Of a stretch of DNA of 27,022 nt, positions 5,040 to 15,982 are shown piece after piece. This DNA comes from a virus (Duplodnaviria; Caudoviricetes). Position 1 is the first letter of the stretch. The number at the start of each line of letters is the position of its first letter. The stretch spans positions 1-27,022 of IMG/VR virus record IMGVR_UViG_3300017780_003508. One strand, written 5' to 3'. The notes beneath the pieces are model-generated. The model was given only the letters and a program-made list of their open reading frames with translations, made no database searches and was not told where the DNA came from. Made by a program: the position numbers and the translations under genes.

Positions 5040-7358
5040 TTATTTTTTATTATTTGCCTTGTTCCAGATGTCAGTGAGTTGGGATTTGGTTTTAATATCT
5101 TTAGGGTCAAAAACAACTATTTCATAAGCTTCCGTACCGTATTTATCTACTCCTCCACCGTCTACTTTAATTGCCTTGTACCCCATCTCTTTTGCTTTCT
5201 CTGTTATTTTTGGGGACTGTTCTTTAAGGAAATCAGTAAGCGTTATGTTTGAAGGACGTTTAGAAGATTTTGGTAAATACAAAACGTCTTCCAGTTCACT
5301 GAAATCTTTAACCTCAAGTATCCTTTCCTTTGGAATGTCAATGTAGGTTTCAATAACTCTTCCACTACTAGTCTTGCCCTGTGTCTTAAACACATCTTTA
5401 CCACTCGCAAAAGTGTCTGCTACCTCTTTAGAGTTGGTTAAATATATTCCTTTACCAGCAAAACCAGAATCAGCACTATTACGTGTCCCAGCTTTAGATA
5501 AATCAAACTCCTTAAAATCTTGTGTTGTTCCATGCAGTAATGGCTGACCTTTAGACTTAACAAACTCCTCCGCAGTCTTGTACTTAGTAGCTTCTTGTTC
5601 TAGTGTTTTAGGAAAAACTCCCATCCTTTCCTTCATTATGTCCTGACCAATAGGTTTTTTTGTACTATTCACAGACCCCTTCTTTACAGCGTTGTTCGCA
5701 CGAGGTAGACTGTTAGGTATGGAAGCCTTAATTGTAGTTTGTGCATTATTATATTGCATCTTTGGAATACCACGGTTATATTCCTGATTAGGAACAAAAT
5801 CACGTCCAAACTTAGGTGCTGGAAGCGCTAAAGGTAATTTAGCGGCACTTTCTTCTGCTTTTTGTAGCACTTTTGACTTCTCAGCTGTTTTACCAAGAGC
5901 TTTTCCAAAAGTATTAGCCATCTGACTACCCAAGATTCTACCTGATACCTCTCCTCCGATTGCCGCACCAATGGCACCGCCAATAGGACCACCAGTAGAC
6001 ATTCCAGCGAGTCCTCCAATAATGTTTCCTGTGCCTGACGCAAAATATTTACCAAGTCTGCCTCCCTTTACCTTTTTACCATCAAGATCAGCAAGCATCT
6101 CTATATCAGAGTAATATTTAGCAAGTTCATCATTGATTTCTTTAATGTTCTGAGCAGAACTGTTCTCAATAAGTTCTTTGAGAGCACGAGCTACAGCTTT
6201 AGCCTCAGCCTTTGATGAAGGTACACTGTAGTTAATGTTTGCTGTCTCTGAGATTTTAGCACTATGAAGAAGATCTAGTGGAATGTTTCCATTAGCATCA
6301 GCCTTACGCTCTAGTCCTTTTACAGTAGAGTTAATTCTTGAGTACGCACTTTCAAGACTACCTCCAGCTAGTTTTTCATCTTCAAGGATTGTCTTTTCAA
6401 GATACTTTGTGACATCACTTATGTTGATTTGCTTACCTTCTTTCTTAAGTAAATCTTTTACAATAGCCTCTCTTCCATCTATTGTCTGAGACTTATACTG
6501 ATCAATAGCGCCTCCTTTTGCCTTTGTATTTATCTTACCATCAGCATCCACAGTGTTTACAAGTACGTCAGTATTAGCAATACGACTTCGTGACTCATTT
6601 CTAGCATCTTCTTTGTATGCGTTCTTCTGGTTAAGTTTAGTATAACCAGTTTCAATATCATAGATGTCTTTCTCTCTACTTGCTACGTTTCTTGCAAGTC
6701 TGCCTTCTTTATTTGAAAGCTCTCCAATAGTTTTTCCTATAGACCCAACAGCTTTTGGAGCATAATGACCTAATAAAGGAACTCCAGCAGCTCCAACAGC
6801 AGCTCCAATAGCTCCTTCACCTAATGAAGTACTTATATCCTTATTTTCTTGTAGAGCTGATCCTGTTCCAATAAGACCTCCAGCAATAGCTCCTTCAGCT
6901 GCAAGAGTTCCAACTTTAGGAGCTATTTTTTGTGCTATCTTAGTCCCAGTTAAAGCTTTCCCAAAGAGCTTAGCTCCTTGCACAGCAAGTCCACTCATAG
7001 GTAAATATGAAGCTCCTTCCATAGCTGTACCAACTAAATCTTTAGTGTACTCAGATCCTTTAAGTTCTCTTCCATCTCTGTAACCAACAAGATTAACATC
7101 ATCACCAAAAACACTTTTTACTTTCCCACTAGCAAGAGACCCTTCCATAGACTTTGGCAGTAGTGCTTTTGCAACAGAGCCTCCTATCTTAGACAGTGGA
7201 TCTACAACAGCCTTAGCAAATGACTTAACAAGCCCTGGCTCTTCTGGTTCAGGAGCATCCGGTAGAGCATTTACTTCGTCAAAAGAATACCCCTGTGAAC
7301 CGCCTGCCGTAGGAGCATCTGGGAAAGCATTTACTTCATCAAGTGTATATCCTGCCAT
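5040..7358 (-). CDS. Putative internal virion/DNA-ejection protein with C-terminal ADP-ribosyltransferase-like (ART-PolyVal-type) domain
   Basis: Gly/Ala-rich membrane-like segments and helical body typical of podovirus ejection proteins. C-terminus has LLHGT..F.EF, GKGIYLT, GYKAI and YEIVVFDPKDIK (H-Y-E pattern). Confidence 0.7.
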   Translation of the reverse strand: MAGYTLDEVNAFPDAPTAGGSQGYSFDEVNALPDAPEPEEPGLVKSFAKAVVDPLSKIGGSVAKALLPKSMEGSLASGKVKSVFGDDVNLVGYRDGRELKGSEYTKDLVGTAMEGASYLPMSGLAVQGAKLFGKALTGTKIAQKIAPKVGTLAAEGAIAGGLIGTGSALQENKDISTSLGEGAIGAAVGAAGVPLLGHYAPKAVGSIGKTIGELSNKEGRLARNVASREKDIYDIETGYTKLNQKNAYKEDARNESRSRIANTDVLVNTVDADGKINTKAKGGAIDQYKSQTIDGREAIVKDLLKKEGKQINISDVTKYLEKTILEDEKLAGGSLESAYSRINSTVKGLERKADANGNIPLDLLHSAKISETANINYSVPSSKAEAKAVARALKELIENSSAQNIKEINDELAKYYSDIEMLADLDGKKVKGGRLGKYFASGTGNIIGGLAGMSTGGPIGGAIGAAIGGEVSGRILGSQMANTFGKALGKTAEKSKVLQKAEESAAKLPLALPAPKFGRDFVPNQEYNRGIPKMQYNNAQTTIKASIPNSLPRANNAVKKGSVNSTKKPIGQDIMKERMGVFPKTLEQEATKYKTAEEFVKSKGQPLLHGTTQDFKEFDLSKAGTRNSADSGFAGKGIYLTNSKEVADTFASGKDVFKTQGKTSSGRVIETYIDIPKERILEVKDFSELEDVLYLPKSSKRPSNITLTDFLKEQSPKITEKAKEMGYKAIKVDGGGVDKYGTEAYEIVVFDPKDIKTKSQLTDIWNKANNKK
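5683..5711 (+). promoter_or_regulatory. sigma70-like promoter antisense to the ejection-protein gene
   Basis: TTTACA (5683-5688), 17-nt spacer, TAGACT (5706-5711); ATG 7 nt downstream. Confidence 0.55.
5719..5787 (+). CDS. Nested antisense 22-aa hydrophobic peptide MEALIVVCALLYCIFGIPRLYS (putative single-pass membrane peptide)
   Basis: Manual translation ATG 5719 to TGA 5787; leaderless position behind the promoter; about 16 consecutive apolar/uncharged residues. Confidence 0.5.
   Translation: MEALIVVCALLYCIFGIPRLYS
7251..7352 (-). repeat. Two-copy 60-nt-period repeat encoding GY(T/S)(L/F)DEVNA(F/L)PDAP
   Basis: 7251-7292 and 7311-7352 align at DNA and protein level. Confidence 0.8.
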
Positions 7359-13289: not shown

Positions 13290-14447
13290 CTAAGCTACGA
13301 GAATCTTCACATCAAGGAACTTCTTTGCTCCGTCAGCGAATGTCTTGATACCAGCGAGGTATGAAGAGAATACGTTTGTACCACGGCGGTCAGCTGTAGG
13401 ACGCATTTCTACTTCCTTCATATCCTGAACAACGAGGTCAATAGCTCCCTTCTTACCGTAGTAGCAGTGTAGGAAGTTAGTAGCCCATGACCAGTTAGTT
13501 GCAGCCTCTGAAAGAGTAAGTCTTCCTGTTCCTGTACCAACAATAGTCATTACAGTTGCTGATGTAGCTGTAGCTGTAACCTTACCAATGATTTCAAGAT
13601 CACTTGTACTTGTAAGAGCAACACCCTGTGCAGTTGTAACTGTAGGAGCGTTGATAAGAGCTGTAAGGTTCTGGATAGAGTTAGTTGCAGCAGCACCGAT
13701 AAGAACGTTTCCAGGTGTAACACCAAGAGTTGTCTTCATTGTGAATACAACACCGTTGATTGTTACAGTATCATTGTCTGAGAAAGTACCTGTTGAAAGG
13801 AGAGTTGCCTCACCTGAAAGGTTTTCTGAAACGTAGAGCTGTGCATTGTTCACATCACCTGTGTAACCATTCTTGAATACGTTACCAGCGAGGTCAATGT
13901 TCTTACCAAGAAGGTACTGTGTAACATCTGACGCAGCGTATGAATCAACAACGAGAACCATATTAGTCATAACCTCCTGGTTATTCTTGTTACGGAGCTT
14001 TGCTGACATACGTGATGTCATTTGTGGAACAGTTGTACTTGAAAGAGTGATTGCTGTACCTGATGAAGTGCCAGTTGTAAGGTCACCGTTATCAAATGCA
14101 AATGAAGCGTTACGAACTTCTGCGAAACAACGACCGTCAAGGTCAAGAGCCACTTTACGTCCGATCTGCTTTCCAATAACTTGTCCAGGGTTAAGTGGAC
14201 CAGCTTGCTTAGCTTCACCGTCTGAAATGTGGAAAGCTGCTTCCTTCTCAAGGTTGATTGTAAGAAGTTCTGAACTGTCAGTTACAGAATCAATAGTTGA
14301 TGCTGAACCACGAGTTACTGTACGAACTTGTACACCTGACATATCATAAGCAACACGTTCTACTGACTCTCCAAAACGGAGTGTACTCTCGAAACGAGTG
14401 TTCATGATTTCTTTTGCTACTAATGTCTTCTGGAACACTTCCTGATA
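13290..14447 (-). CDS. Major capsid protein, exon 2 (P22 gp5-like coat); spliced product 398 aa
   Basis: Begins YQEVFQKTLVAKEIMN right after the intron's terminal G (14448); follows the scaffold gene; coat-like motifs (GESV.R, LTINLEKEAAFHISD, GIKTF). Confidence 0.85.
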   Translation of the reverse strand, partial: YQEVFQKTLVAKEIMNTRFESTLRFGESVERVAYDMSGVQVRTVTRGSASTIDSVTDSSELLTINLEKEAAFHISDGEAKQAGPLNPGQVIGKQIGRKVALDLDGRCFAEVRNASFAFDNGDLTTGTSSGTAITLSSTTVPQMTSRMSAKLRNKNNQEVMTNMVLVVDSYAASDVTQYLLGKNIDLAGNVFKNGYTGDVNNAQLYVSENLSGEATLLSTGTFSDNDTVTINGVVFTMKTTLGVTPGNVLIGAAATNSIQNLTALINAPTVTTAQGVALTSTSDLEIIGKVTATATSATVMTIVGTGTGRLTLSEAATNWSWATNFLHCYYGKKGAIDLVVQDMKEVEMRPTADRRGTNVFSSYLAGIKTFADGAKKFLDVKILVA

Positions 14448-14529
14448 CAGGTTGTTATCGTGAGTCTTCTATTTCTCACTTCAGTATATTCCTATACTGT
14501 TCAGGTCATATCATGTAAAACAGATTTGA

Positions 14530-14988
14530 TTAACACTGGTTGTTTGCAATTTTTATGCATTGACCGATAAACTGTTCTTCTGTATATACATTTTTCATGT
14601 AATTACACATTGAACAACAAGCAACAGAATTATATACAGTATAACCTTTTGAGCTATCCCTTCTATCTATTCCAACAGGATCAGAACTATCACAGTAGTG
14701 GCATTTTTGATTAAGAATATATAGCGCTTCCCAATCTTCTAGACTGTACTCAATTTTTCTAGTTCTAGCACTAGATTTTGTTGAGTTTAGTCTACCTTTT
14801 GGTGTTTTCATATAAAGTCTGCGTGTTTGTAACGCTTTTTCTTTATTGTTTTTTACCCAATTAGTTGCGTTTATTATTCTTGCTTCTCTATGTTCTTTAT
14901 AATAAGCATCTTGTATTTCCTTTATTTTTTCAGGATTTTCAAGACGGTATTTTTTATTCTGTTCCGCTTGTTTTTGTTTATCTTTCAT
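14530..14988 (-). CDS. Intron-encoded HNH-superfamily homing endonuclease (152 aa)
   Basis: CHYC...GIDRRDSSKGY..YNSVACCSMCNYMK zinc/beta-beta-alpha nuclease motif; basic helical N-terminus; lies between the two P8 strands. Confidence 0.85.
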   Translation of the reverse strand: MKDKQKQAEQNKKYRLENPEKIKEIQDAYYKEHREARIINATNWVKNNKEKALQTRRLYMKTPKGRLNSTKSSARTRKIEYSLEDWEALYILNQKCHYCDSSDPVGIDRRDSSKGYTVYNSVACCSMCNYMKNVYTEEQFIGQCIKIANNQC

Positions 14989-14994
14989 ACTTTG

Positions 14995-15022
14995 ATTATA
15001 CCATAGTATGATGTGTTATCAA
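14995..15022 (-). promoter_or_regulatory. Intron-internal sigma70-type promoter for the endonuclease (leaderless)
   Basis: TTGATA-16 nt-TATAAT with extended TG; ATG 6 nt after the -10 hexamer. Confidence 0.65.
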
Positions 15023-15183
15023 AGAGCTATCTTACCGGGTTATTAGTGAGGATTATATTTATTCACCTCTGACCGTCACACATGCCCGGAGAGCCTTTCG
15101 CTATCTCTCCTGCTAGCTCGGTATTGCCCGTTCTGGGGTTCCACCGAATTAAACCCGTTTTACAACGCCTATCGGTTAGGTCA

Positions 15184-15222
15184 AGCGTTATCGAACTCAG
15201 GACGAAAATCTGTTAATGCCAT
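15184..15222 (-). CDS. Major capsid protein, exon 1 (MALTDFRPEFDNA)
   Basis: ATG 49 nt after the scaffold stop; 13 codons followed by an in-frame TGA that is the first intron triplet. Confidence 0.85.
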
Positions 15223-15271: not shown

Positions 15272-15982
15272 TTAGAATCCACTTGTGAGCATAATACTGT
15301 TGTACTCTGCTTTTCTCTTCGGATCCTGCATAATTTCATTGAAATATGCTTTATCTTTCTGAGCACGAGCGTAATCTAGCGGCTGAGGATCCTTCCCTCC
15401 TCCTGGTGTTGTTGATACTATGGTACGCTTTCCAGTGATAGCATTACCATAGGTTTCCTCAATAAGTTGAGCAAACGTCTTGTCCCCATTCTGAGGTAGC
15501 ATTGAGAGAGCTTTAATGACACCAGGATTAACAACTTCTTTGAACTCAGGCATTGATGCAATCGCTGCGTTATAGTGAGTATCAAAGGCCTTATCAATGG
15601 CGACTTGCTTCTCTTTTTCCTCCATAGGCTTAAACTTTGACGAGATCTTGTCCTCTACTTCTCGTTCTGTTTTAGAGCGAATTGATTTCTCTAACTTATC
15701 TAGAAAGCTAGGATCAATATCGAACTCCTTAGCGATTGAAGCTATATCCTCTGACACTTCACTACGGGGAGCATCATTTGAGCGGATTTTTTCTTCAAGC
15801 TCTTTAATCCTTTTCTCTGCATCCTTGCGAGCCATCTTTTCTTTAAGAAAAGCGCTTTCCGGAACATGATTAGGCTGTTTTTCAACTGGAGCTTCTAGGA
15901 CTTCGCTAATTGTTTGTACTACTGTTGGCTCAGGTGTTGCAGGCGCCTCCGCAACTGGAGTGTTTATGTCTTGTTCAGCCAT
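15272..15982 (-). CDS. Putative capsid scaffolding protein (236 aa)
   Basis: Acidic/Pro-rich N-terminus, VP...F...K coiled coil; located just before the capsid gene. Confidence 0.7.
   Translation of the reverse strand: MAEQDINTPVAEAPATPEPTVVQTISEVLEAPVEKQPNHVPESAFLKEKMARKDAEKRIKELEEKIRSNDAPRSEVSEDIASIAKEFDIDPSFLDKLEKSIRSKTEREVEDKISSKFKPMEEKEKQVAIDKAFDTHYNAAIASMPEFKEVVNPGVIKALSMLPQNGDKTFAQLIEETYGNAITGKRTIVSTTPGGGKDPQPLDYARAQKDKAYFNEIMQDPKRKAEYNSIMLTSGF

Follow-up and report, generated by a model that had tools for sequence, protein, structure and literature searches.

The window, by which we mean the whole 27,022-nucleotide stretch analyzed, is a 27-kb virus record whose minus strand includes genes for terminase, SU10-type portal, and adaptor proteins. 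The same strand carries a major capsid gene whose first 13 codons are separated from the remainder by an insertion, and the features of this locus are collected in Table 1. The inserted segment is a real and probably mobile group I intron, and its loop L8 holds a gene for a putative PacI-like nuclease behind a predicted promoter. No family match was found for the gene upstream of the capsid gene, which by its position is likely the capsid scaffold gene. Elsewhere in the window, positions 5040 to 7358 (minus strand) encode a 772-aa protein with a C-terminal domain resembling ART-PolyVal ADP-ribosyltransferases (E = 1e-11); its position makes it a likely ejection protein.

Table 1. Features of the capsid locus, in order along the minus strand (positions are those of the window)
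Feature	Position	Strand	Remarks
Upstream gene, likely capsid scaffold	15272..15982	-	position between portal and capsid
Exon 1, major capsid gene	15184..15222	-	13 codons, last GCT; start of N-terminal helix (residues 3-21 in model)
Group I intron	14448..15183	-	736 nt; first codon UGA; terminal G at 14448
Internal guide	15162..15173	-	P1: 15169-15162 with exon-1 end; P10: 15173-15170 with exon-2 start
Core 5' half	15027..15157	-	lineage model 145 bits
P3 5' strand	15157-15151	-	core 5' half
P4	15147-15142 with 15123-15118	-	then P5, P6/P6a/P6b
P7 5' strand, bulged C	15076-15070	-	core 5' half
P7.1	15069-15048	-	core 5' half
P3 3' strand	15042-15036	-	core 5' half
P8 5' strand	15035-15027	-	core 5' half
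Predicted sigma-70-type promoter in L8	14995..15022	-	11/12 consensus, extended -10
PacI-like (His-less HNH-fold) nuclease gene, putative homing endonuclease	14530..14988	-	loop L8, 152 aa
Core 3' half	14448..14523	-	lineage model 59 bits; ends in terminal G
P8 3' strand	14523-14515	-	then J8/7
P7 3' strand	14508-14503	-	core 3' half
P9, GGAA loop	14499-14482	-	core 3' half
P9.1	14479-14460	-	core 3' half
Exon 2, major capsid gene	13290..14447	-	385 codons and stop; HK97 fold

The window phage has a syntenic relative (capsid 67%, portal 62%, and terminase 53% identical) in a 0.7-Mb genome labelled Saccharibacteria, on a 568-kb contig where it is accompanied by a tyrosine recombinase and surrounded by tRNA-ligase, murG, L9, dnaB, and rsmH genes. 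Six of the 12 genome matches fall in Patescibacteria bins and the other 6 in other phyla, mostly on short contigs; the host of the window phage is likely a Patescibacterium. An apparently whole prophage of the window family, about 42 kb long, was also seen in a Patescibacteria chromosome (L164:17621 to L166:19374; G001:C1, about 267600 to 309400) and carries two tRNA genes and several genes that are, in our judgment, glycosyltransferase-like.

Joined in frame, with exon 2 read from position 14447, the two exons encode a protein of 398 aa. Sequence searches of Pfam, PHROG, and PDB gave no match that would name this protein, and the Atlas offers only partial capsid labels for it. A structure model for an intronless twin of the L001 type (L001 is 95% identical to the window capsid) reached a pLDDT of 86 and has the HK97 fold, its top PDB matches being the capsids of cyanophage A4, P22, and T7 (E = 1e-10 to 1e-8), which bears out the capsid identity proposed in the initial annotation. 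Residues ~222 to 340 make up an inserted domain that folds separately and varies more across the family than the rest of the protein; this domain was modelled confidently even from an earlier set of 12 sequences, whose overall model (pLDDT, 49) was not used for the structure search. The intron cuts the first helix of the modelled capsid, and residues M1, L3, F10, D11, and N12 of exon 1 are nearly invariant among 149 homologues. A 382-codon frame is open from the GTG at 14438, where gene callers had been expected to truncate the protein, and the database protein for this gene is indeed 382 aa long.

Sixteen of 18 relatives carry the 13-residue N terminus joined directly to exon-2 sequence; of the other two, L002 has an intron at the same site and L003 a sister intron after codon 5. 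Among 92 related capsid loci, 87 are uninterrupted at the window insertion site and the remaining 5 carry an interruption, at codon 13 in 4 cases and at codon 5 in 1. The loci comprise the 80 best of 185 viral matches together with 12 genome matches, a sample that under-represents alleles broken in mid-gene. The in-frame exon join first read from the window alone is the one found at these 87 loci, and alignment to intronless homologues, suggested at that stage as a check, places the N-terminal 13 residues straight against exon 2. Homologues beginning at VFQKTL with no MALTDF-like N terminus, the pattern named then as contrary to an intron, were not seen at the 87 of 92 loci. Exon 1 ends in GCT in 9/9 distinct alleles with the intron after codon 13 (site-13 alleles) versus 15/86 intronless alleles, and in T in 9/9 versus 30/86.

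All of the elements claimed in the initial annotation (P1, P10, P3, P4, P6, P7 with its bulged C, P7.1, P8, P9 with a GGAA loop, and the terminal G) lie where it had placed them. In the window, P1 pairs at 8/8 positions with U-G at the splice site, P10 at 4/4, and P8 at 9/9, and the terminal G is fixed at 14448 by the intronless twins. Across 16 ORF-less sister introns, 98.6% of 784 cells are paired and both partners vary in 31 of 49 pairs; slid controls were 29 to 45% paired, and 0/500 shuffles reached the observed level, a test inflated by the relatedness of the 16 sisters. The structure was drawn from the same sequences. The P3-P9 core with its P3/P7 pseudoknot is present and supported by this covariation. 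Both-side changes occur in 1 of 6 pairs of P7 and in 2 of 4 pairs of P7.1, the extra stem-loop between P7 and P3 that serves as the criterion for IA2/IA3 introns. The G-C pair after the P7 bulge, which is the guanosine site, is invariant in 16/16 sisters and in 30/30 cores of the wider lineage. Single-strand folding of the 5' half was no better than chance against shuffles (z = -0.97), and the 3' half gave z = -1.96. The loops of P7.1 (14 nt, 15065 to 15052) and P9.1 (14474 to 14465) are almost invariant lineage-wide and unpaired in the model; a tertiary contact or a protein site is possible there.

A lineage model built from the 16 sisters, with the window left out, finds the window in two halves of 145 and 59 bits and also matches group I introns called by Rfam, in L025 (64 bits) and L030 (40 and 29 bits). 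The Infernal scan with the Rfam group I model that had been proposed as a check fails on the window and across the lineage: RF00028 gave no match on the window region at E up to 10, let alone one of 50 bits, and missed the lineage intron in 9/9 lineage loci tested (E up to 1), as well as L026 and the variant copy in L028. The same model gives 25 to 55 bits to more distant introns with the same P7 (L024, L025, and L030), and it is known to miss subgroups (PMC11878797, PMC6125680). We rejected its silence on the window as a sign that no intron is there, since it misses 9/9 lineage loci. This silence and three P7 pairs that depart from the RF00028 consensus could point to some other structured element merely resembling a group I intron, but such an element is exceedingly improbable given the U-G splice site, terminal G, P1-P10, P3/P7 pseudoknot, and G-C pair after the bulge, the match of the lineage model to canonical introns, and the Rfam scores of the distant members with the same P7. 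The earlier description of a complete group I intron holds for boundaries and fold; the element is not a bare ribozyme, as a nuclease-like gene takes up 459 of its 736 nt, and it is better called a composite mobile intron.

Full-length capsid depends on splicing, as had been proposed: the unspliced RNA runs into the UGA that opens the intron. In metatranscriptome X19, a relative with ~91% identity across the intron (67 of 752 nt differ) is present as three contigs. The first (depth, 49) holds the upstream gene, exon 1, and one further base and forks at the predicted 5' splice site; the second (depth, 13.7) joins exon 1 directly to exon 2 at 14447; and the third (depth, 9.85) runs through exon 1 and the intron and stops 2 nt past the terminal G. 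The exon joining is seen in contigs rather than raw reads, in one run, and in this ~91%-identical relative. In another study (X20 and X21, probably DNA), a phage nearly identical to that of X19 is a single unbroken intron-bearing contig. The joined form of X19 could also stem from an intronless allele in the sample, and an intronless allele was seen as DNA in X2; in the joined form, the last codon of exon 1 is GCT, as it is in the intron-bearing alleles but not in their closest intronless twins. X22 to X24, guessed to be RNA, gave intron-bearing pieces only and no exon joint, with missing cover not counted. One low-depth contig of X21 (2.3) omits the whole L8 insert (window 14515 to 15035) and has 8 other letters between the P8 strands; it is an ORF-less form of the window intron, in a relative.

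These features suggest that the intron likely splices itself out of the capsid mRNA, restoring the 398-residue coat protein. Were the intron instead dead or dispensable, the capsid would have to be translated from an internal start (GTG 14438 or ATG 14405), perhaps off an intron promoter, and both the 382-codon frame open from 14438 and a predicted intron promoter pointing towards it fit that account. We consider it very improbable, as the nearly invariant exon-1 residues of the 149 homologues are part of a modelled helix, exon 1 is intact in all 9 site-13 alleles, the fold is maintained by compensatory changes, and the joined form is present in one RNA library.

The 152-aa ORF of loop L8, its predicted promoter, and P9.1 were absent from the initial annotation, and all are present in the insert. 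The ORF matches PHROG 1035, 3118, and 3322 (endonuclease VII and HNH families), with loose agreement from a second search, and has no Pfam or NCBIfam match; its similarity to PacI (3LDY) is weak (E = 0.007 over 41 residues). Its Cys pairs, a DR-x-D-S-x-x-G-Y motif, and a length of 149 to 152 aa are kept in 6/6 intact copies despite much divergence, and the aligned DR and GY residues are conserved in all six. In PacI, a tyrosine replaces the usual catalytic histidine (PMC5714182, PMC3384342), and from the weak PacI alignment we infer that the L8 nuclease may use a tyrosine in the same way. The -10 box of the predicted promoter ends 6 nt before the nuclease ATG in 6/6 intact copies, a spacing that suggests a leaderless nuclease mRNA; promoter-like sites over the region are not above shuffles (10 found, shuffle mean 7.9). 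We also considered whether a hairpin masks the start codon of the nuclease gene, but the predicted fold lacks the expected pairing and no such hairpin is claimed.

The nuclease gene exists in several states among the 9 distinct site-13 alleles: it is intact in 6, broken by an assembly gap in 1 (L116), reduced by internal deletion to a 38-aa remnant in 1 (L021), and lost in 1 (L107), the near-copy of which, L127, carries an intact ORF. In a quick 84-row capsid tree, made without bootstrap after dropping duplicates and rows with fewer than 270 aligned residues (L127 and L151 were too short), the 7 site-13 rows occupy at least 6 separate positions, and at 4 of these they neighbor close intronless sisters. 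In the two ~99%-identical pairs compared, the few differences are silent and gather within the final 7 nt of exon 1 (3 of 7 differences in L078/L050; 2 of 4, plus one at +3, in L107/L087); the same bases would be expected under selection for P1 pairing. The mix of intact, eroded, and lost copies, the scattered gain, and the altered exon bases beside the insertion point together form the pattern predicted by homing, a cycle in which ORF loss and short co-conversion are expected (PMC3984707).

Our reading, to which we give a probability of about 85%, is that the capsid gene is interrupted by a group I intron whose loop L8 holds a nuclease-like gene, that the intron likely self-splices, and that the nuclease likely spreads it by cutting capsid alleles that lack it, which then receive a copy. 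P1 would offer the U-G pair, guanosine bound in P7 would attack the 5' site, and P10 and the terminal G would define the 3' site, all of which is established group I chemistry. The nuclease would be made from its own leaderless transcript, starting at the ATG, and would cut with a tyrosine in the place of histidine, as PacI does. Repair off an intron-bearing genome would then transfer the intron together with a few bases of exon 1, either in a co-infected cell or with a prophage as the partner.

It is also conceivable, though unlikely in our estimate, that the intron splices but the L8 protein is not its mover, being inactive, a passenger, or a splicing aid, and that spread occurs via free-standing HNH genes by the capsid start (collaborative homing) or by plain recombination. 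The L8 protein lacks the usual catalytic His, ORF-less intron copies persist (L021 and L107), and a different free-standing HNH gene lies between scaffold and capsid in 5/90 loci, one of them beside the ORF-less codon-5 sister intron of L003. PacI itself, however, has Tyr for His (PMC5714182, PMC3384342), ORF loss is an expectation of the homing cycle (PMC3984707), and the Cys pairs, motif, length, and promoter spacing are kept in 6/6 intact copies; homing by the L8 nuclease remains the preferred reading.

At L003 (2085 to 2976), the ORF-less sister intron follows capsid codon 5, and a free-standing 208-aa HNH gene lies directly upstream, with a promoter-like sequence 6 nt ahead of its ATG; the arrangement is that of collaborative homing. 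At four further loci (L096:2501, L109:2364, L075:2501, and L047:2501), the scaffold-capsid gap is filled by a free-standing HNH gene, and capsid codon 1 comes right after the HNH stop as ATT (L075, L096, and L109) or TTG (L047). L096 and L109 have no upstream in-frame ATG, GTG, or TTG, so the capsid would start at AUU or via coupling to the nuclease gene. HEGs near capsid genes have been noted (PMC10448857), and the free-standing HNH genes just upstream of the capsid start (5/90 loci) suggest that cutting near the start codon may favor introns there.

The wider lineage was searched with a 25-letter pattern on P7 and the P7.1 loop, which is blind to the host gene. It matched 29 metagenome and 12 viral loci, which with L116 give 32 distinct cores. 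Twenty-six of these lie in major capsid genes of four families (10 in the window capsid family, 11 in PHROG 9953, 3 in SU10-type, and 2 in PHROG 267 major head genes), 17 of them assigned by search match and 9 by visible likeness to those; 5 others lie in a small gene that follows the scaffold (and precedes the capsid gene in L155), and 1 is in an unknown gene. Approximately 23 of the 26 fall within roughly the first 30 codons, as judged from exon-1 frames and profile positions rather than mapped splice sites. With a looser pattern, the same P7 also appears in portal, terminase, and other genes (the terminase, polymerase, and tape-measure labels are our judgment), and the head-gene bias is therefore confined to the close clade. 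In 151 host-phylum genomes, the lineage model gave 10 weak matches of 22 to 41 bits versus 128 to 229 for members and no close member, and a motif check of those 10 yielded nothing; no chromosomal source was found among them.

The P7 of this lineage departs from the RF00028 consensus at pairs 265-310, 266-309, and 267-308 (Tetrahymena numbers), which are G-C, U-A, and C-G instead of A-U, C-G, and U-A. Positions 265 and 310 covary in 30/30 cores (28 G-C and 2 A-U). G261 occurs only with G-C (23 cases), and A261 occurs with G-C in 5 of the 30 cores and with A-U in 2; a strict three-way coupling of 261, 265, and 310 was rejected on account of those 5. Two of the three altered pairs belong to base triples that sandwich the guanosine (PMC9943679).

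Small, ORF-less members of the lineage are ~240 to 300 nt long. In other capsid families, an HNH ORF lies antisense in the 5' loop region of the intron (L123, L137, L144, and L147); in L125, L130, L138, L139, and L140 the HNH ORF is in the sense orientation. This variety of strand and position indicates that the type and place of the nuclease are not tied to the ribozyme. At L153 (1382 to 2120), an HNH ORF reaches P6 and no 5' half of P3-P5 stands directly before the core; either the ORF is placed within P6 or the intron is possibly damaged. L025 (1562 to 2897) and L030 (1354 to 2417) each crowd four to five group I introns into a single gene region, with canonical-P7 and variant-P7 introns side by side. 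L123 (50 to 294) has a second, Rfam-detectable group I intron (44.7 bits) ~1.1 kb downstream of its lineage intron.

We tentatively propose, at somewhat less than even odds, that these introns form an undescribed phage group I subgroup with a rebuilt guanosine helix (G261 with G265-C310, U266-A309, and C267-G308), unseen by standard searches and specialized on the first codons of major capsid genes in at least four families, driven here by an intron-encoded tyrosine-type (PacI-like) homing nuclease from a leaderless mRNA. If so, the capsid start would be a contested target for which codon-5 and codon-13 introns and free-standing HNH genes compete.

Capsid genes of these phages are mis-called, at 382 instead of 398 aa. 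The Rfam group I model seeded at least one recent intron database (PMC11835236), and phage intron counts are likely too low because introns such as this one are invisible to it. For RNA catalysis, three changed guanosine-helix pairs, small ORF-less members, and a covarying position 261 offer a direct test of how much the base-triple stack tolerates. For mobile elements, one site displays the whole series of gain, decay, and loss beside near-identical intronless twins, and the twin pairs are ready substrates for testing a His-less homing nuclease.

What appears to be new is the set of three P7 pairs off the Rfam consensus, the failure of Rfam at 9/9 loci, and the placement of 26/32 members in major capsid genes. 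The sister intron has no close match among 50,697 GenBank phage records (best, 74% over 41% of the query), and the literature consulted, which includes few subscription papers, holds no account of the P7 variant, a head-gene-biased lineage, or an intron-encoded PacI-like nuclease. Introns of this kind may nevertheless be present in the database of PMC11835236 and in the supplements of PMC11878797. The location itself is not new: the initial annotation had called capsid insertions less common, which needs qualifying now that published examples are at hand in LittleE (PMC3706429) and crAss-like phages (PMC7886860).

For the mycobacteriophage LittleE (Cluster J), splicing of the capsid intron was shown by RT-PCR and N-terminal sequencing, and the same paper cites a capsid intron in lactococcal phage Tuc2009 (PMC3706429). 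As in the window, the LittleE intron lies near the mature N terminus, is preceded by U, ends in G, contains a nuclease ORF, and has an intronless twin; unlike in the window, its ORF is on the opposite strand, and its type was left unsettled (PMC3706429). The window ORF is in the sense orientation, in L8, and PacI-like, and the whole core is resolved by covariation. The crAss-like phages likewise have group I introns that break gene calling in major capsid genes (Yutin et al. 2021; PMC7886860); they are large gut phages with many introns, found via endonuclease domains (PMC7886860), whereas the window phage is small (relatives about 40 kb), has a likely Patescibacteria host, and carries one intron.

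The introns of T4 td, SPO1, and Twort are phage group IA introns. The window intron resembles this group (IA2/IA3-like) in its P7.1 hairpin between P7 and P3, short P5, and nuclease ORF in a peripheral stem (PMC3984707, PMC11878797), but it differs in having one P7.1 hairpin with an almost invariant 14-nt loop, in its altered P7 pairs, and in being silent to RF00028; the existing subgroup scheme and models are described as under-covering phage introns (PMC11878797). As for the nuclease, free-standing PacI-like genes occur in Skunavirus, outside introns (PMC12724721). PacI is a bacterial restriction enzyme, whereas the window gene is intron-encoded, with a long helical N-terminal part and weak similarity (E 0.007); what it shares with PacI and His-Me finger group 20 (3LDY) are the Cys pairs, the DR..GY stretch, and the absence of a catalytic His (PMC5714182, PMC3384342).
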